A stretch of 41,554 bases of DNA. Source: a virus (taxonomy: Duplodnaviria; Caudoviricetes). Each line of letters opens with the position of its first letter. The stretch's first letter is position 1. The notes beneath the pieces were generated by a model. That model saw only the letters and a program-made list of their open reading frames with translations, did not search any database and was not told the origin of the DNA. The position numbers were made by a program, and so were the translations under genes. Positions 82 to 27,152 of the stretch are shown one piece after another. The stretch is from positions 1 through 41,554 of the IMG/VR virus record IMGVR_UViG_3300011422_000009. One strand, written 5' to 3'.

Positions 82-576
82 ATGGCAAGCAAGGCAACAA
101 TTACACAGTTACAAAACGTTTTACTGGCAACCCGCAATTTTAAGTTGCAACCTTTAACCCGCGCACAGCGCATAAACTTTTACCGCGCCGCACGCAACCC
201 GTACGCAGTACGGTATAGCGCAACGGGTAACCCTACGGGGTTACCCGTAGGGTTAACGTTTGTAGGGTTTGTACAGGGGTATACGGTATTGCGCAACCCT
301 AACAAACGGGGTTATACAATTGTACGGGTATACAGTACGGGGTACGCAGCAACCCCGTTTTACAGCGCAACCCGCAAGGGTATACCCGCTGCAATAGCGT
401 ACAAACTTGCGTACGGCGCAGCAATGCGCAGTACAAACCATAGTGCATGGCAAATAGGGTACAAATACCCTGCGCCGTTGCAAGCACAGGTACAGCGCGC
501 AGCGCGTACCGCTGCGCGTATGCAGTTGCTTGCGTTGCAAGCACAAATTGCAGCGGGTATACCCGTTGTAGCGTAG
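82..576 (+). CDS. hypothetical basic protein lacking Asp/Glu (164 aa)
   Basis: ATG preceded by AAAAAGGGG SD-like site, TAG stop, non-repetitive protein-like sequence, flanked by intergenic hairpins like the neighbouring genes. Confidence 0.75.
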   Translation: MASKATITQLQNVLLATRNFKLQPLTRAQRINFYRAARNPYAVRYSATGNPTGLPVGLTFVGFVQGYTVLRNPNKRGYTIVRVYSTGYAATPFYSATRKGIPAAIAYKLAYGAAMRSTNHSAWQIGYKYPAPLQAQVQRAARTAARMQLLALQAQIAAGIPVVA

Positions 577-581
577 GTTAC

Positions 582-670
582 GTTAAAGGCGTACGGTTAC
601 CCCGCTGCGTTGCGCAAGGCAACACAACGCAGCGCAGCGCAGCGCAGCGGGGTATACGTTTGTTTTTAAC
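582..670 (+). repeat. long intergenic inverted repeat with GCGCA/CGCAG units
   Basis: TACCCCGCTGCG pairs with CGCAGCGGGGTA, and outer GTTAAAGGC pairs with GTTTTTAAC. The 3' half resembles positions 15-60. Confidence 0.7.
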
Positions 671-703
671 TATACATAATACGTACACAGCAAGGGGTAC
701 ATA

Positions 704-1141
704 ATGGGGTTAACAAATAGCACAGCAACAAAAGTTGCAAACGCAAGGCATAAGCAAAAGGTAGCAAGGTTTAACGCAACGCAAACCCGCAAACTAGCAA
801 GCACAAAACCCGCACAGCGCGCACAAGGCGCAGCAATGCGCAAACCTGCGCAGCGGGGTAACCCACAACCCAAACTTAAAAAGTTACCTATAAAAATAGG
901 GTTGTGCGGGGTTGCCTTGCTAGGTTACCCGCACAATATATGGCATATGCAAAGCAATATGTACATAAATACCGTGTTGCAAATACGCGCGTACGCCTTA
1001 CATACGCTACCAAACGGTTACATATGGTTTTACGTACCCGCAAAAGGTAGCAAACCCGCGTACCATATTAAGGCGCACAGTAACCCCGCTACCTTTACAG
1101 CGGGTATACAACAATTTTACATAATAAAGTGGTTAAAATAG
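704..1141 (+). CDS. hypothetical basic protein lacking Asp/Glu (145 aa)
   Basis: AAGGGG SD-like site before ATG. K/R-rich N-terminus and aromatic, globular-looking C-terminus. Confidence 0.75.
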   Translation: MGLTNSTATKVANARHKQKVARFNATQTRKLASTKPAQRAQGAAMRKPAQRGNPQPKLKKLPIKIGLCGVALLGYPHNIWHMQSNMYINTVLQIRAYALHTLPNGYIWFYVPAKGSKPAYHIKAHSNPATFTAGIQQFYIIKWLK

Positions 1142-1143
1142 GT

Positions 1144-1226
1144 TACATATAGGCAACACAAACCCCGCGCCGTACGGCGCAACCTACGGGGTTTGTGTTG
1201 CTTGTTATGTACACTATGGTACATAA
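1144..1226 (+). promoter_or_regulatory. double-hairpin intergenic element, copy 1
   Basis: Perfect stem GCAACACAAACCCCG/CGGGGTTTGTGTTGC, then overlapping short hairpin TTATGTAC-actatg-GTACATAA. Confidence 0.7.
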
Positions 1227-1265
1227 AACACAACTTTACATAACCAAGAAAGGTTATAACTTACC

Positions 1266-1655
1266 ATGCAAAACAATACCGCAACCCTTACCCCTATTGT
1301 TAAAAACAATGCTTTAGGGCAATTTGCACACTATGCGCAAGCACAGGCGCAAAAGGCGCAAGCACAGGCGCAACGCCTTGCAAACGCAACCTACGTACTT
1401 GTTAAACCTAGCAAGGCAAACATTACACGTAACAAGCAAGGGGTTACCGCACAGCAACAAGCACAGGTTAACGCAAACCTTGCTGCAACGCTTGTATTGC
1501 AACTGTACCCTTTAGTTGCGCAAAGTGGTTTAACCCCTGCGCAGCAAGCACAGGTACAGCAACACTTGTTGCAAAGTGTATATACATTGCAGCAAGTTAC
1601 AACGCTACCCGCAAGCAAGTACGCAGTACAGTTACAGTTACCGCCAAACCCATAA
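1266..1655 (+). CDS. hypothetical Gln/Ala-rich protein lacking Asp/Glu (129 aa)
   Basis: AGAAAGG RBS at 1247-1253, helical Q/A/L-rich sequence, TAA stop. Confidence 0.75.
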   Translation: MQNNTATLTPIVKNNALGQFAHYAQAQAQKAQAQAQRLANATYVLVKPSKANITRNKQGVTAQQQAQVNANLAATLVLQLYPLVAQSGLTPAQQAQVQQHLLQSVYTLQQVTTLPASKYAVQLQLPPNP

Positions 1656-2165
1656 CCCGCGCCGCAAGGCGTACCCCGCAAGGCAACGCAAACCCGTACC
1701 GCACAGCGCAGCGCAACCCGCTGCGCAGCGGTACGGGGTTGCGGCGCACAGCAACGCAGCGTACCCCGCAAGTATAGGTACGCTGCGTTGCTGTACCCCG
1801 CAAACACAGCGCAAGGTACAGCGCAACCCCTACGCAACACAGCGCAGCGCAACGGCGCAAGGCGCAAACGTACGGGTAACCCGCAAGGCAACACAAACCC
1901 GCAAGGCGCAGCGCAGCGCAGCGCAGCGCAGCGCAGCGCAGCGTACCCGCAAGGCGTACCCCGCTGCGCCGCAAGGCGCACAGCGCAACGGCACAAGCAT
2001 ACCCGCGCGTATACGCGTACGCGTATGTACCCGTACCCGCGCTTATGTGCGCGTACGCGTACCCGCGTATGTGCGTACCTGCGCGCACGCGTACCCGTAC
2101 GCAAGGGTACGGCGCACAGTACAGCGTTGCAACACGGTAACCCGTTGCAAAATTGTACTGTGCGC
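1656..2165. repeat. non-coding repeat/palindrome-rich tract
   Basis: Contains (GCGCA)7 at 1906-1940, a perfect 18-bp inverted repeat (1748-1765/1777-1794), repeated CCGCAAGG, alternating purine-pyrimidine runs at 2004-2094, and an inverted repeat at 2112-2165. Confidence 0.85.
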
Positions 2166-2172
2166 AGAAATT

Positions 2173-2312
2173 GCAAAACAAATCTCGCTACAGAAAATGC
2201 AAAACAAATCTCGTGGGCAAAAAACAGCCACAAAATCTGGTAGCAAAAAATAACCACAAAATCTGTAGCAGTTTTTGCAAAACAAATCTAGCAGTTTTAC
2301 CAACACAAATCT
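2173..2312 (+). repeat. array of six AAATCT-core direct repeats (iteron-like)
   Basis: AAATCT at 2180, 2206, 2233, 2259, 2284 and 2307, with 23-27 bp spacing. Three copies read GCAAAACAAATCT. Confidence 0.8.
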
Positions 2313-2328
2313 CATAAAGGGGCAAAAC

Positions 2329-2565
2329 ATGAAGCGAAAAAATATGTACGTAGGCAAACAAGTTCAGATTAATGTTAACGGCACATTAACTACAGGTATA
2401 ATCTCACACCTATACCCTAACCTTAAATCTGAACTACAGCAACAGGTAGAAATAGATGTACTGCATAATGGGCAATTCTTAAGCCTAACATTGTACGCCT
2501 ATCAAATCTACGCTGTGCCACATATTACCACCAACAAATTTGACCCATACGTACAAATTGCCTAA
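2329..2565 (+). CDS. hypothetical protein (small beta-rich, possibly SH3-like)
   Basis: Start moved to ATG 2329 after the AAAGGGG RBS. Sequence VGKQVQINVNG..TGII suggests a small beta-barrel (inference). Confidence 0.7.
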   Translation: MKRKNMYVGKQVQINVNGTLTTGIISHLYPNLKSELQQQVEIDVLHNGQFLSLTLYAYQIYAVPHITTNKFDPYVQIA

Positions 2566-2573
2566 CAACAATC

Positions 2574-2636
2574 TGCAAACTAGGCAGCATAAGCAAAACA
2601 AATCTTGTGCTGCATAGTGTGCAAATCTGTTGCACA
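2574..2636 (+). promoter_or_regulatory. double-hairpin intergenic element, copy 2
   Basis: TGCAAACTAGGCAGCATAAG pairs with CTTGTGCTGCATAGTGTGCA, then TGTGCAA-atctg-TTGCACA. Confidence 0.75.
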
Positions 2637-2666
2637 ATAAACCAAAATCAAATCGGAGGTAACAAA

Positions 2667-2939
2667 ATGCAAGACGGGCGCAACTACAGCGGTTTAAGCG
2701 AAAGCGAAATAAGCACGCTACTAGATCTGAGGGATAGGGTATACGAAGATCATGGTTGCATAACGCATAGCCAAAACCACCGTATTCTGATTAACCTATG
2801 CTACCATATGATGTGGGAAATAACCACAGCATTATCTGAAGAGGGTGGTAGCTGGCAAGAAGATGAGGCGTTTTTGCAAACACACGAAAAGTTGGTACAG
2901 TTGCTCAACTATACCCGCCCCGTATATTCCGAAGACTAG
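2667..2939 (+). CDS. hypothetical protein
   Basis: GGAGGT RBS before ATG 2667. Confidence 0.75.
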   Translation: MQDGRNYSGLSESEISTLLDLRDRVYEDHGCITHSQNHRILINLCYHMMWEITTALSEEGGSWQEDEAFLQTHEKLVQLLNYTRPVYSED

Positions 2940-2959
2940 CATAAAACAAAACAACAATC

Positions 2960-3020
2960 TGCAAACTAGGTTGCACAAACAAGAAGGTTTGTGCAACATA
3001 GTGTGCAAATCTGTTGCACA
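2960..3020 (+). promoter_or_regulatory. double-hairpin intergenic element, copy 3
   Basis: 21-bp stem TGCAAACTAGGTTGCACAAAC/GTTTGTGCAACATAGTGTGCA with 2 mismatches, then TGTGCAA-atctg-TTGCACA. Confidence 0.75.
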
Positions 3021-3052
3021 TAAAATACCAACACGATCAGAAAGGCACAACA

Positions 3053-3535
3053 ATGTTTATGGATACATGGGTTGCTACCGATGGGATTACTACGGTACGC
3101 TTTTCCGACCTGCAAAGCGCAGAAATATATTGCGCCCAAACAGGATGGCAAACATCTGACCTTTGGTGTATACGGCAGCAACTAATCGTAACACCAGATG
3201 GGGAAAGCGCAATAGTAGAACCCTGGTGCAATCGGATGGACCCAGATGTAGATACAGAAGTACAAGGTACGTGGCTAGATCATGTGTTTGTACCGCCTGC
3301 AAATTCTGTAGCCAACGGTACAAGCGAAGATGATGTACCTGTAACCTACAGTTCTGAATATCTACGCCAGCTAGGTAGTATTTCAGAGCGGCTAAGGTGG
3401 GATTTTCGTGACCTAGCTGCAACAGAACCCACTATTTATAACAATCTAGTGGCTTACGTTAAAAAGTGCGATGCAAAGGGCAAGAAACCTACCCTAAAAG
3501 AAGCAGAAAAAATTGTGGGTAGGTACGCCAACTAA
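3053..3535 (+). CDS. hypothetical protein
   Basis: AGAAAGG RBS before ATG 3053. Confidence 0.75.
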   Translation: MFMDTWVATDGITTVRFSDLQSAEIYCAQTGWQTSDLWCIRQQLIVTPDGESAIVEPWCNRMDPDVDTEVQGTWLDHVFVPPANSVANGTSEDDVPVTYSSEYLRQLGSISERLRWDFRDLAATEPTIYNNLVAYVKKCDAKGKKPTLKEAEKIVGRYAN

Positions 3536-3541
3536 TCTGGT

Positions 3542-3611
3542 TTGCAAGCAAAGGGTACGGCCCATCATCAGATGGGTGGGCCGTTACCTTTACTTACAAT
3601 CTGGTAAGTAA
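3542..3611 (+). promoter_or_regulatory. double-hairpin intergenic element, copy 4
   Basis: AAAGGGTACGGCCCATC pairs with GGTGGGCCGTTACCTTT, then TTACTTAC-aatctg-GTAAGTAA. Confidence 0.7.
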
Positions 3612-3644
3612 CACACAAAACAAAGTTCAGAAAGGACTTATAAA

Positions 3645-4124
3645 ATGCCTTCTCCAAGTAAGCGTACTCAGATTGCCGCTATCTTAAAGCAGCAATATGG
3701 CAATCAAGTAGATACGCCAACGGTAAAGCAACAAGCGAATTACGAAGCGCACAAAGCTGTATCAGAATACTCACATGGCTATTATCAGGATTGGGGTGTT
3801 CTGGTAGGTATGTACGCAGGGTACTACGTAATTCAGCTTGACAGAAATGTAAGAACAGATCGGGATGCCAACGAAAATCTGTATGTTGCTTTCCGACTTT
3901 ACTACAACATCTATAGCTTTACCCATGAAAATGAAATTTGCTATATCCCGCAACATAGCAATGGGGTCGGAGGCCAAACGCTAGATGACTGCCTAAATGC
4001 AATCTGCTATCATATTGCCCACAACGCAGCTTATCGCAGCGCAAACACAGGATTGTGGCAACGTAGGCTTCCAGTTCATTTACAGCAACTTCCCAACGTA
4101 CCTAATCGGTTCGGAGTAAGCTAG
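3645..4124 (+). CDS. hypothetical protein
   Basis: AGAAAGGA RBS, 159-aa ORF. Confidence 0.8.
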   Translation: MPSPSKRTQIAAILKQQYGNQVDTPTVKQQANYEAHKAVSEYSHGYYQDWGVLVGMYAGYYVIQLDRNVRTDRDANENLYVAFRLYYNIYSFTHENEICYIPQHSNGVGGQTLDDCLNAICYHIAHNAAYRSANTGLWQRRLPVHLQQLPNVPNRFGVS

Positions 4125-4126
4125 GT

Positions 4127-4180
4127 TGCACATAGGCTGCATAAACAAGATTTGTGCAGCTTATTGTGCAGATTGGCACA
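4127..4180 (+). promoter_or_regulatory. double-hairpin intergenic element, copy 5
   Basis: TGCACATAGGCTGCATAAA pairs with TTTGTGCAGCTTATTGTGCA (G-U pairs), then TGTGC-agattg-GCACA. Confidence 0.72.
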
Positions 4181-4219
4181 GCAAGCAAACAAAGCAAAGT
4201 TCAGAAAGGCTTTATACAA

Positions 4220-4495
4220 ATGTCAGAATATCCATTGGTTGCCGTACCCCACTTACATGAAGATCAATTCATGGAAGGGGATGGGGATATGGGTTTTGCC
4301 GTACATCCGATGGCTGGCTATGGTACAATCATAGTTAGCGTGGATGGATGGGATTGCCCGTTGCAATTCTTCCGAGTAGACGGCATGGGTAGCTATCAGG
4401 TTTACGAATACGTAAACGAAGAAGATGGTGTAATCTGTTACATGGTTAATCCATCAGAGTTTGCCACTGTAGTACCTGTATCGCAAGAAGTGTAA
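4220..4495 (+). CDS. hypothetical acidic protein
   Basis: AGAAAGG RBS before ATG 4220. Confidence 0.75.
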   Translation: MSEYPLVAVPHLHEDQFMEGDGDMGFAVHPMAGYGTIIVSVDGWDCPLQFFRVDGMGSYQVYEYVNEEDGVICYMVNPSEFATVVPVSQEV

Positions 4496-4499
4496 TCAC

Positions 4500-4562
4500 G
4501 CACACGATACGGCATAACCCCCACAATCTGTTGTGCCGTATAGTGTACAGGATTGCTGTACA
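4500..4562 (+). promoter_or_regulatory. double-hairpin intergenic element, copy 6
   Basis: ACACGATACGGCATAAC pairs with GTTGTGCCGTATAGTGT, then TGTACAG-gattg-CTGTACA. Confidence 0.7.
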
Positions 4563-4601
4563 GTAATCGTCCTATGAAATCTCCAGAAAGGGATACATGA
4601 A

Positions 4602-4832
4602 ATGAAGTACATATTGCTAGTACGTAAAGATGGCGAGGAAGCACGACCAATAGAATGGGGTGCAAGAGAACGCCTACGTACTTTCCAGCTAGGCTACAAA
4701 CATGGTCTTTTGGATCAGGGTTGGAAGAGCTATGCCACTTATCAAAAAGATTATTACAATTTGGTAGATGGCAAAGGTAAACACATCCAACTATATATTC
4801 TGACCGAGCAAGAATGGAAAGACGAGAACTAA
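4602..4832 (+). CDS. hypothetical protein
   Basis: AGAAAGGGA RBS, 76 aa. Confidence 0.7.
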   Translation: MKYILLVRKDGEEARPIEWGARERLRTFQLGYKHGLLDQGWKSYATYQKDYYNLVDGKGKHIQLYILTEQEWKDEN

Positions 4833-4833
4833 C

Positions 4834-5115
4834 ATGCACTATGTAATGTACAAAGAAGCTGACGGCAACAGTGAACCGGAAGTTCTGTTTGCTGGCAATA
4901 GAGACAAGGCTATCGGTTACTACGAAGGCTTTGTAGATGCAATCCAAAGAATGGGCAACCATACACCAGATTTTAGGGGTGGCATGAAAGACCCAGATAT
5001 TGATTTACGGATCGCACGCATACACTTCTATCGTAACGATAATCCTGGTTACGCTTTCAACTTATGGGTTAAGAATTTACAACTTCCGAGAGCTTATAAC
5101 TACAAAGAAAGATAA
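4834..5115 (+). CDS. hypothetical protein (paralogue of 7738-7998)
   Basis: Abuts the upstream gene. Shares E-x-LFAG...Y...DAI and F-x-LW motifs with 7738-7998. Confidence 0.75.
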   Translation: MHYVMYKEADGNSEPEVLFAGNRDKAIGYYEGFVDAIQRMGNHTPDFRGGMKDPDIDLRIARIHFYRNDNPGYAFNLWVKNLQLPRAYNYKER

Positions 5116-5121
5116 ACAACC

Positions 5122-5199
5122 ATGTTGCACGTAGAACCAGAATTTGCCATTATCGCAATTGTGTTCTTACTGTGTCTATTGTGGGGCCGTAAGGTTTAG
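5122..5199 (+). CDS. possible 25-aa hydrophobic peptide
   Basis: MLHVEPEFAIIAIVFLLCLLWGRKV with AGAAAG upstream. Fills the gap before the next hairpin element. Confidence 0.4.
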   Translation: MLHVEPEFAIIAIVFLLCLLWGRKV

Positions 5200-5200
5200 G

Positions 5201-5260
5201 CGCAAACTAGATGCTATCACCTGATTAGATGGTAGCATTTAGTGTGCGAATAGACGCACA
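5201..5260 (+). promoter_or_regulatory. double-hairpin intergenic element, copy 7
   Basis: CGCAAACTAGATGCTATCA pairs with TGGTAGCATTTAGTGTGCG, then TGTGCG-aataga-CGCACA. Confidence 0.72.
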
Positions 5261-5297
5261 ATATCTTATTAGCTAGGTTTCAAGAAAGGAACCAAAC

Positions 5298-5801
5298 ATG
5301 AACGCCAACACCACCACGATCAAGTTCCCCCGCTTCAAGAAGGATGGGATCATTGCCAATGCCGTTAAAAACCATGAAGATTATATGGCTCGGCAGAAAG
5401 CACGTTTCACCTTCATCAAGCAAGCGGCACGCATGATCGATGAGAGCTGGTTGCCTGAAGATAGCCGTTTCTACGTAGAAACCTACGGTATGACCATCTA
5501 CATTCCTTGGTCAAAGGCTAATCTTATTAAGGCACGCAAGGCTATCGGAGCTGGCTGGAAGTACGATAGCCAATACCAGAACGATAATGGTACGCTGACC
5601 AAGAATTATCACACATACTTGGAAAGCGAATACATTAGCTTGACTCTGGTAATGGATGCAGAGAAGTTGGTCGAAGGTACTTGCAAGAAGGTCTTAGTGG
5701 AAAGCAAGACCGAGATGGTGCAAGTCACACGGCAGACCTATAAGGTCATCTGCGAAGATGGCACAGAAATGATGGAAGTAGAAACAGAACGCAACGTGTA
5801 G
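5298..5801 (+). CDS. hypothetical protein
   Basis: AGAAAGGA RBS, 167 aa. Confidence 0.8.
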   Translation: MNANTTTIKFPRFKKDGIIANAVKNHEDYMARQKARFTFIKQAARMIDESWLPEDSRFYVETYGMTIYIPWSKANLIKARKAIGAGWKYDSQYQNDNGTLTKNYHTYLESEYISLTLVMDAEKLVEGTCKKVLVESKTEMVQVTRQTYKVICEDGTEMMEVETERNV

Positions 5802-5884
5802 TGCAGAGGACGGCACACCCATGATCTTGTGGGTGGGCCGTAATGCGCCTTCCACTCGGAAGCTGGTTCCAAGTCCAGGCACAT
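5796..5884 (+). ncRNA. twister-like self-cleaving ribozyme (circularly permuted, type-P5-like)
   Basis: GCA-GAG-GA-[P1 CGGC..GCCG]-UAA-UGC-GC-[P3 CUUCC/GGAAG]-[P4 CUGG-UUCCAAGU-CCAG]. Both pseudoknot pairings (GA:UC and GC:GU) are satisfied. Confidence 0.82.
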
Positions 5885-5905
5885 TATTACCCAGAAAGGT
5901 ATAAC

Positions 5906-6160
5906 ATGAAAGAAGAAGAAGGTACGTATCTTCTGCAATTCCAGTTCGATGAGGCAATAGACATGGAAACAGAATGGTTCTACCATCTGCAACATGCGTT
6001 GGTGCGCCTTACGTATCTGAGCCAAATCCACCCCGACTATCTGGTAGCTTGTATCTTATTCCAGGCTAGGGATGGTGCGCTGTTCGATGTGTGTGAATTT
6101 AACATTCGGATAGGCTATGGTTTTGAAACAGATAGGATCCCCTATGCTACGGAATTGTAG
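5906..6160 (+). CDS. hypothetical protein
   Basis: AGAAAGG RBS before ATG 5906. The longer track start overlaps the ribozyme. Confidence 0.7.
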   Translation: MKEEEGTYLLQFQFDEAIDMETEWFYHLQHALVRLTYLSQIHPDYLVACILFQARDGALFDVCEFNIRIGYGFETDRIPYATEL

Positions 6161-6425
6161 TGCAGATACTTTGTACGGCAAAGCAGATGATAGGCTTTCT
6201 CGCATTACGTCTGCCTTACTACATCTAGCGCAAGAAAAGCAAGAAAGCTGGGAAGATTGCGTACTGTGGTCTGCTCCTACAGAGTGCTGGAAGCAGATCG
6301 AAGATACGCATGATCGCAAGAAAAGCCTAGTTCTCTTCTATGTAGGTATGGATGAAACCGAATGGCTTGCTGCCGTAAGAGAACGCACCAGTGAACGATG
6401 GGTCTATTACAACTTACCATTTTAG
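6144..6425 (+). CDS. hypothetical protein
   Basis: AGGA before ATG 6144, short overlap with the upstream gene. Confidence 0.65.
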   Translation: MLRNCSADTLYGKADDRLSRITSALLHLAQEKQESWEDCVLWSAPTECWKQIEDTHDRKKSLVLFYVGMDETEWLAAVRERTSERWVYYNLPF

Positions 6426-6437
6426 GAGATTACGATC

Positions 6438-6719
6438 ATGGCAGAAGTACAGGAAATGGATCAGTGGGAACGGGATGAGTTACGAAAAGCAGCTCGTCAA
6501 GAGTACGAGAATAATATTCTCAAGAATCTACGGGATGCAGTAGCAGATGCCTACGTACCTCTCTTCCCGCCGATGGCCCCGACCAATGTAAGCCCGAAAA
6601 TCGAAAGATTGCTGGCTTACCTTACCTATGCGATCACCTTGCACTTAGATGATCATGAGGATGGTTGGTGGGAAGATGAGGATACCATTCAGGAATTTGA
6701 CACGTTGTTTTTAGGATAA
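6438..6719 (+). CDS. hypothetical acidic protein
   Basis: AGGAG RBS, 93 aa. Confidence 0.75.
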   Translation: MAEVQEMDQWERDELRKAARQEYENNILKNLRDAVADAYVPLFPPMAPTNVSPKIERLLAYLTYAITLHLDDHEDGWWEDEDTIQEFDTLFLG

Positions 6720-6740
6720 TCAAGAAAGGATACGAGAATC

Positions 6741-6878
6741 ATGTTAGTTGTCTATATATCTATATGGTTGATCAGTCGCTTAATCTATGTTGTGCTGATA
6801 GCCAACCAAAGATCTGTTCCAATCCCAGTTCCAAAGAAGAACTATACTCCTGTTTCTAGCCCACGCTGGCCTGAATAG
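6741..6878 (+). CDS. small putative membrane protein (45 aa)
   Basis: AGAAAGGA RBS and hydrophobic N-terminus MLVVYISIWLISRLIYVVLIA. Below the ORF-track size cut-off. Confidence 0.55.
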   Translation: MLVVYISIWLISRLIYVVLIANQRSVPIPVPKKNYTPVSSPRWPE

Positions 6879-6884
6879 GGTAGA

Positions 6885-6980
6885 ATGCAGAGTCCGGCAG
6901 CACATCCTAAAAGATGTGTTTGCCGTAATGCAGGTCTCGTGGTATAATGAGTCTACGGGACAAGGTGACAACTCCTTAAG
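6885..6980 (+). ncRNA. second twister-like ribozyme (type-P5-like)
   Basis: GCA-GAG-UC-[P1 CGGC..GCCG]-UAA-UGC-AG-[P3 GUCUCGUGG/CUACGGGAC]-[P4 AAGG-UGACAACU-CCUU]. Pseudoknots UC:GA and AG:CU covary with the first copy. Confidence 0.82.
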
Positions 6981-7017
6981 AAGCATAGTCTTAGCTAGTT
7001 TCAAGAAAGGAACTAAA

Positions 7018-7338
7018 ATGTTTAATCCCAAAATCCAAAAGTTAATTAAGGATCAAATGGCTGCGGATGATCATCTTCCTGCCTACGCATGGCCTGGAGG
7101 CTATCCATTGTTTTATATGGATGAGGAGAACAATGTTCTCTGCCCCAGATGTGCCTTCAAGGATAAGGATGATGAGTATCGCATCATTACAGATTACGAG
7201 ATTAACTGGGAGGATTACAATCTTCGTTGCGATGAATGCAATGATTTCATCGAATATGCTTACGGCAGCGATGGAGATGAGGATGCAGAGCGGGAACGTC
7301 AGGTCATGTTAAATGATCAGGAGGAAGATGAGGAATGA
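7018..7338 (+). CDS. hypothetical protein with CxxC...CxxC (Zn-binding) motif
   Basis: AGAAAGGA RBS before ATG 7018. Motifs AWPGGYP, CPRC and CDEC, with an acidic tail. Confidence 0.8.
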   Translation: MFNPKIQKLIKDQMAADDHLPAYAWPGGYPLFYMDEENNVLCPRCAFKDKDDEYRIITDYEINWEDYNLRCDECNDFIEYAYGSDGDEDAERERQVMLNDQEEDEE

Positions 7339-7751
7339 GAAAAGTCATCATCCACCCGACCTACAAGCAAATGACGGATGCACAACTTAAAGAGTACATC
7401 CGCCACAAACTTGAATCCCATCCACATTGGGCAAGACGTGCCTTGCTTGCGCTATATGATGAGCAAACGGATAACGAGAAGGAAGATCCCACCGTCCACG
7501 AAAGTAACGGTTACGGATTCTCCCCACAGGATCAGGAATTTCTCACATCCCTAGCGCAGCAAGCGTTACGAGAGCAAACCTTCTCGATGAAGCAGTTGGG
7601 TTGGCTCTACACTCTTCTTCCTAAGTATTCGGGTCAGTTGGTAAAACTGATACGGCAGCAACAAACGGAAGAAGAAATCTCCATCGACTTAAAACGTGAA
7701 CAACAATGGGAACAGGAAGAAGAAGACGAGGACGTAGATGTCGAGTTCTAA
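7335..7751 (+). CDS. conserved phage hypothetical protein
   Basis: ATGA overlap with the upstream gene. The W..RAL..Y..QT..E...NG.GF...D...L.S pattern is recalled from phage proteins of unknown function. Confidence 0.8.
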   Translation: MRKVIIHPTYKQMTDAQLKEYIRHKLESHPHWARRALLALYDEQTDNEKEDPTVHESNGYGFSPQDQEFLTSLAQQALREQTFSMKQLGWLYTLLPKYSGQLVKLIRQQQTEEEISIDLKREQQWEQEEEDEDVDVEF

Positions 7752-7998
7752 AAAGGTTTTTGAAGTGCTAACAAAGTCAGACAGAGATGATAGTACAGAA
7801 ACTCTGTTCGCGGGAAGTTGGCGAGCTTGTTGCATCTATTTGCAAGCCTATATAGATGCCATTGTAGCTCTCACAGATTATAAGTATCTAACTGAAGGGG
7901 ATGCAAAAATCCCCACAGAATACGATGTAGTGTTGATGTTCCGTTCACCCCTTGTATCACAACCTGACTTCTTCCTTTGGATAGACCAGGCAGCATAG
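7738..7998 (+). CDS. hypothetical protein (paralogue of 4834-5115)
   Basis: GAGG RBS. ETLFAGSWRACCIYLQAYIDAI matches EVLFAGNRDKAIGYYEGFVDAI. Confidence 0.7.
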   Translation: MSSSKKVFEVLTKSDRDDSTETLFAGSWRACCIYLQAYIDAIVALTDYKYLTEGDAKIPTEYDVVLMFRSPLVSQPDFFLWIDQAA

Positions 7999-8001
7999 TT
8001 C

Positions 8002-8053
8002 CACATAGGTTGCATCAGGATCTGGTGCAACTTATTGTGTAGATATGCTACAC
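8002..8053 (+). promoter_or_regulatory. double-hairpin intergenic element, copy 8
   Basis: CACATAGGTTGCATCAG pairs with CTGGTGCAACTTATTGTG, then GTGTAG-atatg-CTACAC. Confidence 0.72.
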
Positions 8054-8092
8054 GATAATCTATTTAGTTGGTTTCAAGAAAGGAACTACATC

Positions 8093-9124
8093 ATGGCACA
8101 CAATCTTTTCAACGAACGCTTCTACTCCCTTCGCCAACCTGCTTGGCACGGACTAGGGAAGATCGGTGAAGAGGAACAGACGGCAACGGAGATCTTCAAT
8201 GGGATGCAACCATACATTGTGACTCTGGAACCTGTCTTCACTAAGGTTGGCAACATCAAGTTGGAGTTGCCTAATCGTGTGATCACTCGCCACCCGCTTC
8301 CTGACGACAACAATTTCCGCAGTTTTGGGATTGTTGGGCCGGAGTACACAATGGTAGATCCACTTCGCACTTGTGAAATCTGGGACGAATCTACCAAGAA
8401 GCCCGTTGAAACGCTCGGTGTTCTGGGGCAAGGTGAGAGCATCTTCATCACCACAAAGCTACCCTCTTTCCAGATCATGGGAAATGGTAGCGTAGCGGAT
8501 GATGTGGATAGCTATCTTCTGTTGCACAGTCCATACGGTGATGGCGCAATTCAAGTTCGTGTTACGCCAGTACGTGTGGTCTGCCAGAATACGTTGATTG
8601 CAGCGAAATCTGCCAGCACCGAGAGTTTCAGGATCATCCACGATAAGGACGTAGAAACACGTCTGTCTGGTTGGATGGAGGGCATTGTGCAACGTGCCGA
8701 AAAGAAGAGCGAGTATCTAGCCGAATGCTTCAATTACATGGCTTCCACTACCATCGATGATGAGCAAGCAGAAGATGCTCTCAAGCGTATCTATGTGGAT
8801 CCCCGTAAGCCTTCTTATGTTCCTGACCAGTCGGTTATGGAACGGCGAGAAAAGGCTTACGAAGCCAATCTAAAAGCGAACATCGGCTGGCGGGAGCGTG
8901 TTATGGAAGATTGGCAAGGTGAGGGCATGGGCATGGACTCAGACGTGCTGAAGGGTACGGTATGGGGTCTGTATAATGCTGTAGTGGAGATTGAAGACTA
9001 TCGTCCTACAGTTGGCCCTATCGGGGACAGTCGTCAGTGGAATACGCTTTTTGGGGATCGTAGTAAGACCAAAGAGCTGGCTTACGAGCAACTGTTCCAG
9101 TATTCCATCGAGTCGAATACCTAA
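8093..9124 (+). CDS. DUF932 / TIGR03299-type phage/plasmid protein
   Basis: Family-typical motifs MAH..., PAWHGLG, ETLGVL..G..IF, TPVRVVCQNTL and GTVWGLYNAVVE..D. AGAAAGGA RBS before ATG 8093. Confidence 0.85.
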   Translation: MAHNLFNERFYSLRQPAWHGLGKIGEEEQTATEIFNGMQPYIVTLEPVFTKVGNIKLELPNRVITRHPLPDDNNFRSFGIVGPEYTMVDPLRTCEIWDESTKKPVETLGVLGQGESIFITTKLPSFQIMGNGSVADDVDSYLLLHSPYGDGAIQVRVTPVRVVCQNTLIAAKSASTESFRIIHDKDVETRLSGWMEGIVQRAEKKSEYLAECFNYMASTTIDDEQAEDALKRIYVDPRKPSYVPDQSVMERREKAYEANLKANIGWRERVMEDWQGEGMGMDSDVLKGTVWGLYNAVVEIEDYRPTVGPIGDSRQWNTLFGDRSKTKELAYEQLFQYSIESNT

Positions 9125-9125
9125 T

Positions 9126-9383
9126 ATGCCACGCTCAGGAACCCCACCACGCAAAAGTCACTACAGTCCACTAGAAATCAAGTACAAGTATGTCTTGGCT
9201 TGGTGCGTATTCGTGGATTCTCATGACTACTTTATCAAAAAGCAACTTACGGCAGCAGAGGAATCTAATGCGCCGAAGGATGCTTATTCACAACGTCCGG
9301 ATGGTACATGGCGCACATTAGATGAGATGCCTGACCAAAAGACGGCACAAGCTCTCAAGGAATGGGCTGCTTACGTCAAATAG
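9126..9383 (+). CDS. hypothetical protein
   Basis: ATG 9126 lies immediately after the DUF932 stop. The longer track start overlaps that gene. Confidence 0.65.
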   Translation: MPRSGTPPRKSHYSPLEIKYKYVLAWCVFVDSHDYFIKKQLTAAEESNAPKDAYSQRPDGTWRTLDEMPDQKTAQALKEWAAYVK

Positions 9384-9393
9384 TTTGTAAGTT

Positions 9394-9450
9394 CAAACAG
9401 ATAGCTCTCATGAAAATGGGAGCTATTTGTTTGCACTATACAATGTGCAA
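9394..9450 (+). promoter_or_regulatory. double-hairpin intergenic element, copy 9
   Basis: CAAACAGATAGCTCTCAT-gaaa-ATGGGAGCTATTTGTTTG, then TTGCAC-tatacaat-GTGCAA. Confidence 0.7.
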
Positions 9451-9597
9451 ATTACAGCGTAGGGTATAGGCAAAACACCTGTTTTAAGGTTTTATACGCC
9501 TATAGTGTACGCTGTAAAAACACCTATACCCCATTACAGGTACTACCCCACACAAAACACCTATACAACGTTTTGCAAGGGTAGTACAGCCACCCAA
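9422..9597. other. GA/TC-free intergenic island with inverted and direct repeats
   Basis: No GA or TC for about 176 bp. Inverted repeat TTACAGCGTA..TATAGGC/GCCTATA..TACGCTGTAA at 9452-9517. AAAACACCT at 9472, 9517 and 9554. Confidence 0.8.
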
Positions 9598-9615
9598 GAA
9601 AGGTCAAGATATGAG

Positions 9616-10542
9616 ATGAAGCTCATCCGGGATCGCTGGATGCCTATGTTTCAGCTTGCTAGAGAATTGGAACCCAAAGTAGATAAACTCTACAAAGGGG
9701 ATCCAGAATACTCTAAGGCTTTCGTAAAGAAAGCAGAGCAAGGCATGAAAGCGGACTATCGTGCGGCAGAAGCCTTGATGGCAATATCTGAAACTATTGT
9801 GCTGCCATCCAGCATTATGCTGGATTTAGTTCACAATATCGACAGAATCGACACCACAGGATGGATTAAACTGCCGTATCCCTACGTTACCATTCAGTTC
9901 ACCCACCCTATTTTAGAAACTGAGATCATGCTCCATGAGGAAAAGAATGACCTCATGACCAGATTTGGTTTAGAAAATGATACGGTGGAAGGAATCATCC
10001 TTGGTAACGCAGATCAGGATCAACGTCCTTTTCCACCACAGCATGTTTTCAACATGATGAATTGCTGCATACTGTTCAACTCAACAAGTGTGAACAGAGT
10101 AGCGTGGATAGGGACGAGCAGTCCGGCAAGACCTCACTGGCAGAACAGCATGTTCCGTGAAAGTGAGATGCCATACAAATCTAGGGAAAATAAGTACAGG
10201 ATGATCAAGTTATGTTATGCGATTAACCTGTTCTTAAATGCTCCCAACGTCATCGTAGTAAAAGAGAAGCCAGATCCCCACGTTAATGCAAAGCGTGAAC
10301 GTAAGGGGAAGGCTATCCTGCCGGAATACCATACGGTGACAATTCAGAAGATACAAGTGAAATACGCAGAACCTAGCGGGAAAACGGGAACGGCCCACAC
10401 ACGTATGTATCCTGTGCGTGGTCACTTCCGTAAACTTGCACAGTTTGAAGACCCAATCTGGGTGCATAATCACTTCCGTGGACTCAAACATGGCGAAGAA
10501 AGCCTCGTCAAAGAGATCTACAGAGTTGCGCCCAAGAAGTAG
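9616..10542 (+). CDS. hypothetical protein with C-terminal VRGHxR...W...H.RG motif
   Basis: Start moved to ATG 9616, since the upstream part of the track ORF is the non-coding island. The basic C-terminal His/Arg motif is recalled from phage proteins of unknown function. Confidence 0.8.
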   Translation: MKLIRDRWMPMFQLARELEPKVDKLYKGDPEYSKAFVKKAEQGMKADYRAAEALMAISETIVLPSSIMLDLVHNIDRIDTTGWIKLPYPYVTIQFTHPILETEIMLHEEKNDLMTRFGLENDTVEGIILGNADQDQRPFPPQHVFNMMNCCILFNSTSVNRVAWIGTSSPARPHWQNSMFRESEMPYKSRENKYRMIKLCYAINLFLNAPNVIVVKEKPDPHVNAKRERKGKAILPEYHTVTIQKIQVKYAEPSGKTGTAHTRMYPVRGHFRKLAQFEDPIWVHNHFRGLKHGEESLVKEIYRVAPKK

Positions 10543-10570
10543 GTAATAGCGGATTGGTCGGTACGGAAAT

Positions 10571-10599
10571 TTGCCTTGCCGACCCATTCGTGTTACAAT
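10571..10599 (+). promoter_or_regulatory. sigma70-type promoter
   Basis: TTGCCT, 17-bp spacer, TACAAT, with extended -10 TG. Confidence 0.65.
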
Positions 10600-10650
10600 A
10601 AATCGTGTAGTTATTGCAGTCCCCACACAAACCAAGAAAGGTTTTACATC

Positions 10651-11688
10651 ATGGAAGACCAAGTTCAGCCCAGCATCGCCAGTCAAATCGAGGCCCTCGT
10701 TGCCGCTAAGAATGCGGAAGGTGAGTACGTCACCGTCCGTACCGTATCCAAGCAACTGGGAATCAAGCAAGCCGATGTACGGCCAAACCTTCCGGCAGGA
10801 GCTACGCTTCTTCCCTCCAAGAATGGGACAATCGGCGAAAGCCGTATTCAATTGTCAACTGGAGAGGAGGAAGAGTATGTAGACGCAGATACTCTGCCCT
10901 CTACTGACTCCAGCAACGAAGAGGAAGTCGTTCAGTTAATGCTACCAAGAAAGACGAGGCGTGTTAAAGTGGAAACTGAACCGAAGGTACAAGAGCTCGA
11001 TGAGCAGGGCAACCCCATTCCGGAAGCGGAAAAGGTAATCTGCACCATCTGCGGAAATCCCGTTCGCAAGAATACCATTGTGCGACGTGGGATTTGTCCT
11101 CTCTGCTTCCGTCAGCTTGCCAAGAATGTAGGCATGAATGCTACGAAGTTGGAAAGCCTTACGGATGAGGAGTTTGACATCGTAACTGGTGAAGAGCTGA
11201 GCCGTCGTCGCACGTTGGAAGAATACAAAGCAGGACGTATTCTTACCGATGAGCAGTTCAAGGCGATGGAAGGCACGATTATCCCCGTTAAGGAAGTCTT
11301 TGCTGCCGCTAAAGCTGCGGGATACGGGCCTGGTCGTGTCGCTCAAGCAATGGGTGGCGATCGCTTCCGGCACGAGCCTCTGGGTGGTTTTGACTCGGTG
11401 TGGACGCCCTACTTCGTAGGCGCACGCAAGGGATGGTACTTCAACATCGATATTCTCAATCACTTCGATGACCTTGCCAAGCCTGTGAAGAAAAAGAAAG
11501 CCAAGAGCGCAGGAACCCGTTCGGCAGGAGCAGGTCGTAAGGGAGCTCGTGGTGCAGCCATGACGCAAGTCGTGGAGAGTGATGAGGAAGCCACGCAAAT
11601 GATGGATTCCACCAATCCAGAAGAGGATGAGTTTTACGAAGAAGAGCAGGATGAGGATTACATCGACGAAGTAGAAGAGCAGGTTTAA
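10651..11688 (+). CDS. putative DNA-binding protein (HTH-like N-terminus, Zn finger, basic patch, acidic tail)
   Basis: AGAAAGG RBS before ATG 10651. Features VRTVSKQLGIKQADV, CTICG..CPLC, KKKKAK and a D/E-rich C-terminus. Confidence 0.75.
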   Translation: MEDQVQPSIASQIEALVAAKNAEGEYVTVRTVSKQLGIKQADVRPNLPAGATLLPSKNGTIGESRIQLSTGEEEEYVDADTLPSTDSSNEEEVVQLMLPRKTRRVKVETEPKVQELDEQGNPIPEAEKVICTICGNPVRKNTIVRRGICPLCFRQLAKNVGMNATKLESLTDEEFDIVTGEELSRRRTLEEYKAGRILTDEQFKAMEGTIIPVKEVFAAAKAAGYGPGRVAQAMGGDRFRHEPLGGFDSVWTPYFVGARKGWYFNIDILNHFDDLAKPVKKKKAKSAGTRSAGAGRKGARGAAMTQVVESDEEATQMMDSTNPEEDEFYEEEQDEDYIDEVEEQV

Positions 11689-11704
11689 TCTTCGCACTAA
11701 ACTG

Positions 11705-11738
11705 GAATCCCTGGAGCAATCCAGGGATTTCTTTATTT
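11705..11738 (+). terminator. intrinsic terminator
   Basis: GAATCCCTGGA-GCAA-TCCAGGGATTT followed by CTTTATTT. Confidence 0.8.
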
Positions 11739-11807
11739 GTAGGGCAAATTGCCCATCTTAACTTTCTTGACCAGAGCAAGTCGTAAAACTGCTCAGGAGA
11801 ATCTACC

Positions 11808-12032
11808 ATGAATTGCAATTTTGACATCCTGATCAACCAGCTTGAGAAGCGTGCTGCCGAGTCCCGAGCGCAGATTGGCAAAACCCGCACTAAGTTGGAA
11901 AGTCATGAGCTGAAGGGCGAAGTCTATGCCATCAACGAGGTGATCTACATGGTCAAGGAATTTGCCAAAGCACAGGAGAACAGTAATGGATCCGCAGATC
12001 AGGTGGAACCTGTGGATGCTGCTGCATCTTAG
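11808..12032 (+). CDS. hypothetical helical protein
   Basis: AGGAG RBS, 74 aa. Confidence 0.7.
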   Translation: MNCNFDILINQLEKRAAESRAQIGKTRTKLESHELKGEVYAINEVIYMVKEFAKAQENSNGSADQVEPVDAAAS

Positions 12033-12087
12033 TCTTCTAGTCGGGTTGGCCGTAATCGTTCTTTTGAAGCTATGGAGTGGATCATGA
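11986..12087 (+). CDS. possible 33-aa membrane peptide
   Basis: AGGAG RBS. MDPQIRWNLWMLLHLSLLVGLAVIVLLKLWSGS, ATGA-coupled to the next ORF. Confidence 0.5.
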   Translation: MDPQIRWNLWMLLHLSLLVGLAVIVLLKLWSGS

Positions 12088-12251
12088 ACAAAGAAGAGCA
12101 GAAGAAACTGCTAGAGGAACTGGAAAAGCGTAAAGCTGATATTCTGGCAGAGCAGATCAACGAAACTTTCGCTTACAAGAAAGGCTTGAACACAGGAGCT
12201 ATCCTTGGAATCAATGATGCCATTAAATTGATCAAGGAAGCAACTAAGTAA
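12084..12251 (+). CDS. hypothetical 55-aa protein (resembles 11808-12032)
   Basis: GGAG RBS. MNKEEQKKLLEELEKRKADILAEQ...GINDAIKLIKEATK. Confidence 0.6.
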   Translation: MNKEEQKKLLEELEKRKADILAEQINETFAYKKGLNTGAILGINDAIKLIKEATK

Positions 12252-12264
12252 AGTCCGGCCCCAC

Positions 12265-12295
12265 ATCCCCAGGAGCAATCCTGGGGATTTTTTTT
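12265..12295 (+). terminator. intrinsic terminator at the convergent junction of early and late operons
   Basis: ATCCCCAGGA-GCAA-TCCTGGGGAT followed by a T run. Confidence 0.88.
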
Positions 12296-12299
12296 GATC

Positions 12300-12497
12300 T
12301 TATCCTATTAGAATGAATCCTGGGGTACTGATAGGAAAGTCGATAAGACCTAGAAGGCTCAGAAGCCATAAGATCAGAACCAAGACCACAATCCCCAATG
12401 ATATCAGACGCCAGGGTGGGGGAAATCCACGAGAGAGATACTCGATTCCCGTCACCAATAAGATTCCGATAATGATGTAAATAATCCAGTTCCCCAT
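12300..12497 (-). CDS. small two-TM membrane protein (holin-like candidate)
   Basis: Two hydrophobic helices, last gene of the late operon. Confidence 0.65.
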   Translation of the reverse strand: MGNWIIYIIIGILLVTGIEYLSRGFPPPWRLISLGIVVLVLILWLLSLLGLIDFPISTPGFILIG

Positions 12498-12593
12498 AGC
12501 AGATTTCCCCTATCAGATCAGCAACTTCACAACTTCAGATCTTGAGATCTTGACCATTCAGACGAATCCGTAAAGCAGATTTTGATGTTGAGA

Positions 12594-12980
12594 TCACGGT
12601 GGAGGTCCTTCCTCTTCCTGAGCTTTCCCTTGCGGTGGTGCAGATGTAGGAGCCACCAAGACCTCAGGTTCTACAGGCCAGATGTTTGTGAGAAGTGGAA
12701 ACCATTTGGTCACAAAAGTTTGGATTGCGCCAGCGGCAGAAGCTGGATTCTCAGCCCAGGGATCAAACTTCACCGTCCAATCATAATCTGCTATGATGGT
12801 CTGAGGAAAGAAGAAAGTCTCTGGCTGCTTGATGACACGAGACATCAGTTCCTTATTAGGATCTTCTGCCGTAAGGCTTTCTGCCGCATCCAATCCTTGC
12901 TTCTTTACTTCCGCATCTACTTGATTGCGAAATTCTTCTGAGTTGGAAAAGGCTTTCTGTTGCAAACTATTGATGGGCAT
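12594..12980 (-). CDS. hypothetical protein
   Basis: 128 aa, TAATG-coupled to the upstream gene. Confidence 0.7.
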   Translation of the reverse strand: MPINSLQQKAFSNSEEFRNQVDAEVKKQGLDAAESLTAEDPNKELMSRVIKQPETFFFPQTIIADYDWTVKFDPWAENPASAAGAIQTFVTKWFPLLTNIWPVEPEVLVAPTSAPPQGKAQEEEGPPP

Positions 12981-13291
12981 TAGTTCCCCCCGATACCAAT
13001 AGAGCGTGCCGTAGCCGGATCAGCTTCATGGATAAGACCGTTGAGCATCATGAGCGCACCCGTAGTACGTTGGATTTGCTCTTCTACTTGCTTGAGCCTT
13101 TCCTGGATAGCCTCACGGTCAGCCTTGATGCCATTAAGATCAGATAGTAGTTCTTTACGCTTTTCCACGAACGCATCAATATCCATAGTTGCTGTCTTCT
13201 GTGCCGTACTTGCTGTTTGTTCCACGATCATATCCCCTGCGTTCCTCTCCGAGTGATTCTGATTGTTGCGGATTGTGGCTTCAGCTTCCAT
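12980..13291 (-). CDS. hypothetical coiled-coil protein (possible fibre chaperone)
   Basis: AAGGAG RBS, heptad pattern, directly downstream of the fibre gene. Confidence 0.7.
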   Translation of the reverse strand: MEAEATIRNNQNHSERNAGDMIVEQTASTAQKTATMDIDAFVEKRKELLSDLNGIKADREAIQERLKQVEEQIQRTTGALMMLNGLIHEADPATARSIGIGGN

Positions 13292-25900: not shown

Positions 25901-26361
25901 TGATGCACAATCATCGAGCTTTGCAAGATTTGCTTGTTAGCAGTAATCGTGTTACTTACACGGATTGCCGTATTCGCTTTATTGGTCTGAGTAAGACGCT
26001 TTTGATGTTGTTCCAGTTTAACTAGAGCTTGCTCAGATAAATCTATCTTTATCTTAGCTTCTGCTCTAGCAACAGAAACATCTACACCTTTCTTGGTTTC
26101 AGCCCGAATGATACGGGTTCTAGAATCTGCTTGTGCTTTGGCCGTCGCCGCTTTTAGCTGCTCAAGATTACTACGAGCATTGGCAACCATCACAGACAAA
26201 CTTTGGGACACCAGCTTTATTGAAGCATCGGCATCCTTCATACTTGCCTTGACGCTCTGACCTAAAGCCGTCATGTCAATGATGGCTTTTTTAGAGTCAG
26301 AAGTGTCAATTATAAATTTGATTTCGGGATTGTCGCCACTACCGCCAGGAAGATCGCTCAT
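22897..26361 (-). CDS. tape measure protein
   Basis: 1154 aa, A/Q/E-rich helical sequence with a Gly-rich hydrophobic segment, after the tail chaperones. Confidence 0.88.
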   Translation of the reverse strand: MSDLPGGSGDNPEIKFIIDTSDSKKAIIDMTALGQSVKASMKDADASIKLVSQSLSVMVANARSNLEQLKAATAKAQADSRTRIIRAETKKGVDVSVARAEAKIKIDLSEQALVKLEQHQKRLTQTNKANTAIRVSNTITANKQILQSSMIVHQQQMQASKASQAAHTANAKVAVAAQKQIQAAVTATGKVQAAIISSNSKAAQAAAAANLSSQNHQQRIAMAAFQQQNRMMLLQQRQAGRTARQGGGQGGWGAAWGTSGLLQGLGTVGKALGGGGGAGLLGGLVGLGAGSFAGGAIVGQITAVVKNLTDAAAAADTVTAAYSRQAVAARSLAGSQGEVNELLQVYSEATGGVLSKQQQLEGVTKLLSVGFADSAKEIEQAAKSIRGISLATGRPQDAVENDLILEMFTQRGQRLDQLGLQYDVVRKKTNELMAANSSLTKQQAYQNAVLDHAMERYGALADSAAGQATEVERLAAAYDNLGLAISESVGGPIDFLAKRFTIAAESATEFFDEINRKSPDQFTRMGDVEGGIWGKDDKNRHSLGQARSIQLGLEMTKANMEAGKFSTAMLGIEPTAERIAQEFAEVNVMLKAATNSVIALNAARVMEQGLNLDYSGPDPTGSTRDVGPTADQIDEMVSFAAERRRITADADQAILDENRSYFRERARVERDYQEQVSEEAADFARKRARDNAHFAADLARAEQDMAKDRLKAQEDLADDIARMTRDHNRRLAEYAEDLQESIADANKQARKRTEDAIEDFNEKQLEAREDSAKRILEIEEDFKKQQKRAAEDHNDAILDAASRLDAAAVYQEQRDFARKQRQAEEDKKIAVEKEKEKLDEQLVENKEAQDKLLAEIQENLKEEIEEQNKAHLERVADANEAHALQLADQQAAAADRLEEQGLEDAERLQDMKDAHILRQSEEDIDRGIRLGKDETHHNAQLLEMNRVHGERITQIGEHATAELTALNTAHNQRMIDLNFANSAWQEAENRATAIALEEHKKYLLEDKLLRANARKAIIEEKIADAAFTGEDLGPLQDALKTTNEAIEAIGDSIETQQGIIDALPKPEDVIVRIGTGGPSAAGFSPTVRGEGGVYDKVIPGSITGMGGNTVKTSNIRVDAGAIVINAPPGMSAASIYAEFDSKLLTLLNKVAASG

Positions 26362-26739
26362 TAGTTTGGCTTATACTCCCATTTCTTAACACCGCTACCT
26401 TGCTGTCCGGCCAGAGCCAAAACAGTAGCAAGACCCTCCCCTGAGAATGGATCATTGCTACGCTTCTTAGCTTCTTCTTCTTTGTCCATTGGAAGCTTGA
26501 ACTTATCATCTAGTAATTGATGAATCGTATACTTTTGCTTCCATTCCTTCTTGTCACCCATCCCTACTTCTATACGTTCATGTACGGCATTCTCAATTAC
26601 ATTACCAAAGGTCACAACGGCAGCATCGAATAGATAAGCTACCAAAGGATCTTTAACGCCTAGAAGATCAGACGGTCGGCTGTGGGTCTGCTGCACCGTT
26701 TGCCACAACGTCCACATCTGACGGCGGTTGGTAACGAAA
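26361..26739 (-). CDS. tail assembly chaperone, downstream (GT-like) segment, probably reached by frameshift
   Basis: Overlaps the upstream chaperone in the +1 frame, has no clear RBS, and lies just before the TMP. Confidence 0.6.
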
Positions 26740-27150: not shown

Positions 27151-27152
27151 GA

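Follow-up and report, generated by a model that had tools for sequence, protein, structure and literature searches.

The window analysed here, the whole 41,554-nucleotide stretch of the virus record IMGVR_UViG_3300011422_000009, carries on its + strand a real type-P5 twister ribozyme (twister 1), confirmed at positions 5803-5878 by comparison of its sequence with a covariance model, a structural descriptor, and orthologues. We propose that it processes an early polycistronic mRNA into protected units, a reading to which we assign a probability of roughly two in three. In all of the related phages found, twister 1 stands behind one and the same upstream gene, and its core is followed by a conserved 3' tail that is complementary to the cut strand.

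The record (41.5 kb, completeness estimated at about 50%) encodes terminase, portal, capsid, tail, helicase, and Sak4-like proteins and therefore represents a tailed phage, the terminase of which had 24-27% identity to those of annotated phages among the matches listed. Both runs with most of the 41.5-kb stretch were freshwater sediment metagenomes, one of which may be its source, and a contig from run X2, an independent assembly, was identical to the window over 5200-5883. A search of genome contigs for a prophage relative with capsid and DUF932 queries found none. Positions 82-12250 form a + strand block of small genes, nearly all without a known family; one gene carries DUF932, and terminator-like hairpins at 11704 and 12265 bring the block to an end. 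The label early, used here for this block, is suggested by the gene layout. Positions 1-2160, which include three ORFs, contain one GA and no TC dinucleotide in 2160 bases, compared to 789 and 558 in the region 2161-13000. GA was also nearly absent on both strands in L067 (1-3000), L069 (1-4000), and L001 (about 1500-6000), and the scarcity of GA and TC was kept in two relatives over 3-4.5 kb, after which GA+TC density climbs gradually. This striking stretch looks like first-entering DNA cleared of host-defence targets. Elsewhere in the window, a tail assembly chaperone ORF (PHROGs) overlaps the next ORF ahead of a 1154-aa gene (26668-27237 and 26361-26789, - strand), the usual place of a programmed frameshift.

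Identity and architecture of twister 1

The gene upstream of twister 1 (5298..5801, + strand, 167 aa) has no PHROGs or Pfam family, and none of its 27 homologues has a functional name. Its TAG stop codon (5799-5801) lies 4 nt before the GAG of the ribozyme. Downstream, a small hairpin in the consensus fold (5888..5908, + strand) holds a Shine-Dalgarno-like AGAAAGG (5893-5899), followed by the ATG at 5906 of an 84-aa gene without a known family. The element is thus placed between stop codon and ribosome site, as the initial annotation had described, and the downstream gene varies among relatives. AGAAAGG sites usually lie inside a small hairpin with a loop of 5-6 bases and compensatory change among relatives; in the window, such sites stand ahead of 1266, 3645, 4220, 4602, 5298, 5906, 7018, 8093, and 10651, and common translational control through them is possible.

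A covariance-model search, suggested by the initial annotation as a check, returned a match of Rfam Twister-P5 (RF02684) to 5802-5878, but at 36.9 bits it fell under the gathering score of 37.6, so that the gathering-threshold scan of the window was empty. The missing 0.7 bits reflect the scoring of P3 and of the long P1 as insertions. E values were 3e-4 for the window against 4227 families and 7.1e-8 for a single family in one genome, and none of 14 control genomes exceeded the Twister-P5 cut-off. A descriptor demanding P1, P2, P4, and both pseudoknots, run on both strands of the window, found two sites, twister 1 and 6887-6977, compared to a chance level over 40 dinucleotide shuffles of 0.05 on average in its loose form and 0 in its strict form. 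P1, P2, and P4 are in twister arrangement according to the descriptor, pair counts, and consensus fold, and alignment to model positions 1-58 showed the type P5 layout, in which the chain ends at P5 and P1 is closed by a loop. Rfam match, descriptor, and orthologue pairing together bear out the earlier identification as a permuted twister with a hairpin-closed P1, a layout that corresponds to type P5. Twister-sister (RF02681) was considered for both twister 1 and the double hairpins described below and was rejected, having no match in the phage's own genome at E <= 10.

Searching viral contigs at the protein level yielded two relatives by single sequence and three by profile, and the twister follows the same stop codon in all three of the latter. 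Pattern scans added 23 viral and 36 metagenome stretches. The descriptor gave 78 distinct cores, of which two were dropped, an obviously wrong pick in L039 and a second register for one core in L036, leaving 76 cores at 40 loci, some on overlapping or near-identical contigs. Because the search patterns prescribed the UAAUGC strand and were biased towards the subtype, core counts describe this subtype rather than twisters at large; the UAA and the catalytic G and A were likewise demanded by the scans, a demand from which the protein-found L001 and L002 are free. Twelve distinct sequences follow homologues of gene 5298-5801 at 36-98% protein identity, and such homologues precede the twister at 12/12 aligned loci; a thirteenth, L044, is nearly identical to L023 and was left out of the alignment. 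In this alignment, 99.2% of 240 cells were paired, compared to 28-37% in slid controls. Two-sided changes occur in 11 of the 20 pairs, among them one pair of T2 and both of the variable pairs of T1; the shuffle control is inflated by the relatedness of the orthologues. RNAalifold recovered the nested fold P1-P4 from the 12 orthologues unprompted. Eleven orthologues (the aligned set excluding L045) were scanned with Rfam: six passed with 43.0-50.1 bits (L001, L034, L040, L047, L051, L058), the window and L037 were below the cut-off, and L002, L023, and L049 were missed. The Rfam cut-off therefore misses this subtype in 5/11 orthologues and in the second twister of the window genome.

All parts of twister 1 lie on the + strand. 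The P2 5' strand (GCA, 5803..5805) pairs with 5844-5846, with 94% of cells paired and the outer pair broken in 2/12 orthologues; within the 12, P2 shows no covariation, and different pair types are seen in L009, L018, and further loci. The L1 strand (5806..5810) comprises the GAG, invariant in 12/12, and the T1 strand 5808-5810, and its G5806 is the predicted general base, a role taken from PMC11662667. P1 with its closing hairpin occupies 5811..5840 (pairs 5811-5814/5837-5840, three of four changing on both sides), and the P1 hairpin 5810-5841 folds at -19.6 kcal/mol. The UAA (5841..5843), also invariant in 12/12, contains the predicted scissile bond U5841/A5842 and the invariant A5842, which by class would be the general acid. 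Next come the P2 3' strand (5844-5846) and the T2 strand (5847-5848), together 5844..5848; the first T2 pair among orthologues is A-U, G-U, U-A, or G-C, and T2 of the window consists of G-U plus C-G. The P3 hairpin (5849..5862; 5849-5853/5858-5862), with four of five pairs changing on both sides, adjoins P4 directly without a linker. P4 (5863..5878; 5863-5866/5875-5878) is paired in 100% of cells with one pair changing on both sides, and its 8-nt loop L4 (5867-5874) holds the partners of T1 and T2.

Several details of the earlier description could be refined. Both pseudoknots are indeed present, but T1 has 3 bp rather than 2, including G5808-C5870, the third T1 pair being G-C in 75/76 cores and A-U in 1/76. 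The elements assigned to the span 5796..5884 are in place, although the conserved core is narrower (5803-5878) and the outer pairing is not conserved: a P5 stem 5796-5799/5879-5882 appears in the single-sequence fold and is absent from the consensus fold of the 12 orthologues. The 3-bp P2 was read correctly, as 62/76 cores have the same length; an alternative 4-bp register would break T2 and had no support. About 2,600 natural twisters have been tested, about 94% of which cleaved, and P2 length was unlinked to cleavage, G-U was tolerated in the 2-bp pseudoknot, and changes of the general acid or base were harmful (PMC11662667). Since a 3-bp P2 is common among the cores and P2 length did not matter for cleavage in that study, the short P2 is no defect. 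G5806 and A5842 are intact in the window and invariant in the 12 orthologues, and with the UAA intact the cut predicted earlier at 5841/5842 holds by class; both the chemistry and the cut site of twister 1 would follow the class assignment of G base and A acid (PMC5408937). A 2-nt insertion at 5801, which L037 and X4 and X5 contigs lack, allows P2 to extend by 2 bp into T2 bases in the window copy alone, which could slow folding in the window strain.

A conserved 3' tail complementary to the cut strand

A 3' tail (5879..5887, + strand) is complementary to the cut strand 5840-5848 with one mismatch, its core CAUU (5882-5885) standing opposite AAUG (5842-5845). CAUU is kept in 12/12 orthologues, 3-9 nt after P4, and the tail pairs in register with the cut strand at 6-8 of 9 positions in all 12; it was part of neither search pattern. 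In MAFFT columns, the tail pair adjoining T2 is A-U in five orthologues, G-C in three, G-U in one, and unpaired in three. The duplex was better than with shuffled tails (p <= 0.05) in 10/12 orthologues, the window (p = 0.09) and L037 (0.056) falling short of significance. Over all cores, 22/76 reached p <= 0.05, none of them in the L016/L017 array, and since these arrays lack the tail, it is not needed for the array layout.

Nested folding suggests two possible consequences of this complementarity. In the 3' product, the 5' end lies on the tail with a probability of at least 0.5 in 7/12 orthologues and below 0.5 in 5/12; for the window product, the tail-capped fold has a probability of 0.71, compared to 0.22 with shuffled tails. 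In the precursor, the added tail drops native P2 below 0.5 in 8/12, two of which were already low without the tail, while in the window native P2 keeps a value of 1.00 when the tail is included. In four precursors, the 5' strand rather than the cut strand is the preferred partner of the tail, and in 12/12 orthologues the tail pairs in addition with U(-1), the nucleotide preceding the cut. Given these models, the tail could cap the downstream product, switch the ribozyme off, or both. The novelty may lie in this conserved tail, which might cover or block the site of cleavage.

Gene-gap elements and the proposed role

The descriptor's second site is a second twister in the same early block (6887..6977, + strand), which scored 35.5 bits against a model built from twister 1 orthologues and was missed by the Rfam search of the window. 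Capping by its tail was mixed, with product pairing of at least 0.5 in 3/8. Twister 2 also holds a sigma-70-like promoter, with the -35 in the P1 3' strand (6920) and an extended -10 in the P3 loop (to 6948), a layout found in 8/76 cores, all in the twister 2 slot; a promoter-like site at 10571-10599 has the same TTGCC -35 start and extended -10. The twister 2 tails of the window, L001, L002, L023, and L049 each look like the ribozyme's own 5' strand, except that another base takes the place of the catalytic G.

Nine gaps of at least 90 nt occur between 2329 and 9383, two with twisters and seven with long imperfect hairpins between stop codon and ribosome site (2570-2635, 2955-3020, 3545-3612, 4128-4190, 4500-4562, 5198-5262, and 7996-8058), so the earlier observation that the twister occupies a slot type otherwise held by double hairpins is correct. 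The 3' arm of the long hairpin can refold into a second hairpin. The 36 double-hairpin elements compared have 19-30 predicted pairs and only two alignment columns at >= 90% identity, that is, the long imperfect stem without a fixed sequence core that is expected of RNase III-type targets. None scored above an Rfam cut-off; twister-sister or another Rfam ribozyme was rejected for lack of a match and of an invariant core, and twister model R1 matched only the ribosome-site hairpins. An expected bias of G-U pairs towards the + strand of the double hairpins was not borne out, the + strand being more stable in 20/36. As candidates, the double hairpins fit RNase III-type substrates better than a small ribozyme. 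A four-way-junction RNA-like element was observed in an early-gene gap of relatives (L069 6127-6263, L040 1677-1803, and L044 about 4150-4280, - strand), with a six-base loop common to the three; Rfam scans of L069 and L040 gave no match for it, and it is a candidate uncatalogued motif.

One of the non-twister hairpins has sequence in common with twister 1: the exact 11-mer 5831-5841 of P1 recurs at 3574 and in hairpins of three relatives. The chance expectation is 0.04 in 90 kb, and the matching hairpins may descend from one or two events; the P1 sequence differs in eight other orthologues. This sharing suggests an exchange of parts between twister and hairpins, in either direction. We also looked among relatives for slots that switch between twister and hairpin and saw none. 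Beyond these relatives, unrelated contigs (L016/L017, L018/L026, L063-L065, L020, L021, L009, L057, and L028) carry type-P5 twisters in arrays of 3-9, with a single copy in each gene gap. L017 and L018 have eight and nine Rfam-passing type-P5 twisters in 8 kb and share no early gene with the window, and L052 also has a type II hammerhead. A stop codon (of an ORF of at least 35 aa) lies within 12 nt of the GAG in 66/76 cores, compared to 297 of the 3879 GAGs located elsewhere on these strands.

From the observed sequence, covariation, position, and conservation, we infer cleavage of twister 1 in vivo, the folds of its products, and its purpose as follows. Self-cleavage at U5841/A5842 would divide the early transcript immediately behind one gene and shortly before the following one. 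Since P1 is hairpin-closed in the P5 permutation, the upstream product would keep the P1 hairpin at its 3' end, a stable terminus with a 2',3'-cyclic phosphate; in all 76 cores this hairpin is predicted at -5 kcal/mol or better. The downstream product would start with a 5'-hydroxyl, keep P3, P4, and the tail, and refold with its first bases on the tail, presenting a paired 5' end before the ribosome-site hairpin. In many bacteria, RNA decay is slowed by a 5'-hydroxyl end and by helices at the termini. Small early genes, singly or in pairs, could in this way be given separate protected mRNAs, each with a stability and a rate of translation particular to it, and the seven long hairpins probably do the same job in the other gaps, by analogy with the early RNase III sites of T7. 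Counting against a processing role, the window and 5/11 scanned orthologues are below the Rfam cut-off or missed, and the P2 extension could impair the window copy. The tail results that fell short (significance in the window and L037, capped product folds in 5/12, presence in the L016/L017 arrays) and the lack of any observed switch between twister and hairpin also weigh on this side.

The same features can be read in other ways. The ribozyme might be active but gated, cleaving mainly when the upstream gene is untranslated: a ribosome at the stop codon would cover the strand of P2 and the GAG during synthesis of the tail, the tail would capture the cut strand, and the mRNA would stay whole. 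The pairing of the tail with U(-1) in 12/12 orthologues matters only before cleavage and therefore counts for this reading, as do the drop of native P2 in 8/12 precursors under nested-only folding and the stop codons close to the GAG. However, native P2 of the window is unaffected by the tail, the folding ignores pseudoknot energy, the four precursors in which the tail prefers the 5' strand do not fit, and tight gene packing alone would explain the stop-codon proximity; we consider such gating unlikely. Cleavage might instead expose the early mRNA to host exonucleases and so damp or time out downstream early genes. RNase J can attack 5'-hydroxyl ends in some hosts, which would favour this outcome. 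A precedent is glmS, the one understood bacterial case, which destabilises its own mRNA (PMC6765202) and to that extent counts against a protective role. Yet both predicted products of twister 1 end in helices, the P1 hairpin of all cores and the tail helix, and arrays in which almost all genes are preceded by a twister and have strong ribosome sites favour expression over silencing; destabilisation appears quite improbable.

Two further readings make cleavage incidental or absent. Twister or hairpin plus ribosome site could form look-alike modules for swapping small early genes, a view that gains from the variable downstream gene and from the P1 sequence common to non-twister hairpins; the catalytic bases and both pseudoknots, kept with compensatory change, would however be unneeded for DNA recombination, and we regard mere cassette borders as very improbable. 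That the window copy is a dead or misfolded remnant, or resembles a twister by chance, could be argued from its score below the Rfam cut-off and from the 2-bp P2 extension competing with T2 in the window strain, but all catalytic and pseudoknot positions are intact, strict descriptor matches were absent from 40 shuffles, and the identical sequence was recovered in the independent assembly X2, which leaves this the hardest of the readings to credit. Processing into protected units remains our preferred reading. A bolder reading, which we hold to be less likely than not, is a twister subtype with a built-in fifth strand, in which the tail caps the new 5' end or holds the ribozyme off while a ribosome is on the stop codon, working beside enzyme-cut hairpins with which it exchanges parts. 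If true, this would be a natural translation-gated twister, and the early operon would combine processing modules that need no protein with others that depend on the host, both assembled from a common set of parts.

Relation to known systems

Type-P5 twisters (RF02684) belong to the class of Roth et al. 2014, as cited in PMC5408937 and PMC11662667. Both the class and its occurrence between genes of phages have already been published, and the subtype may already be in the Roth 2014 or Weinberg 2015 alignments; added here are the conserved 3' tail and the P1 hairpin shared with neighbouring non-ribozyme hairpins. A literature search covering few subscription journals found no primary study on a twister tail or on phage-operon processing by twisters. 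Twisters cluster near phage genes, and PMC6765202 and PMC10085705 treat their purpose as unresolved. With the role of twisters in bacteria and phages still open (PMC6765202), this locus offers a small, self-contained system for testing: the orthologous twisters keep their place behind a single gene throughout a phage family, both pseudoknots come in natural variants, the conserved tail offers two opposite testable predictions, and the neighbouring non-ribozyme hairpins are built-in comparators.

Twister 1 has the P1, P2, and P4, the optional P3, the T1 and T2, and the GAG/UAA of L1 that define type P5, and like that type it ends at P5. In contrast to RF02684, it has a 3-bp P2, a P3 abutting P4, a long P1 hairpin, no conserved P5 stem, and a conserved 3' tail, differences that cost bits and place the window copy below the Rfam cut-off. 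The predicted self-cleavage ahead of a bacterial-type coding sequence has a parallel in glmS (PMC6765202), whereas glmS is ligand-gated and lowers expression and twister has no known ligand site. The early RNase III sites of T7, such as R1.1 (PMC6121014), are similarly structured cut sites between early genes of a polycistronic transcript; there, a host enzyme is needed, while twister would need none and would leave a 5'-hydroxyl. The clustered hammerheads of prophages offer a further parallel. According to Perreault et al. 2011 (PMC3088659), they flank single prophage genes, cleave in vitro and in E. coli, and are proposed to act in processing, and a halovirus early transcript has its 5' end within 3 nt of a hammerhead cut. 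As here, self-cleaving RNAs stand between single genes or short blocks, their neighbours are not constant, and the processing proposed yields gene-length mRNAs; the phage described in this study differs in using another ribozyme class, and in having ribozymes in two of nine wide gaps and long hairpins in the rest.
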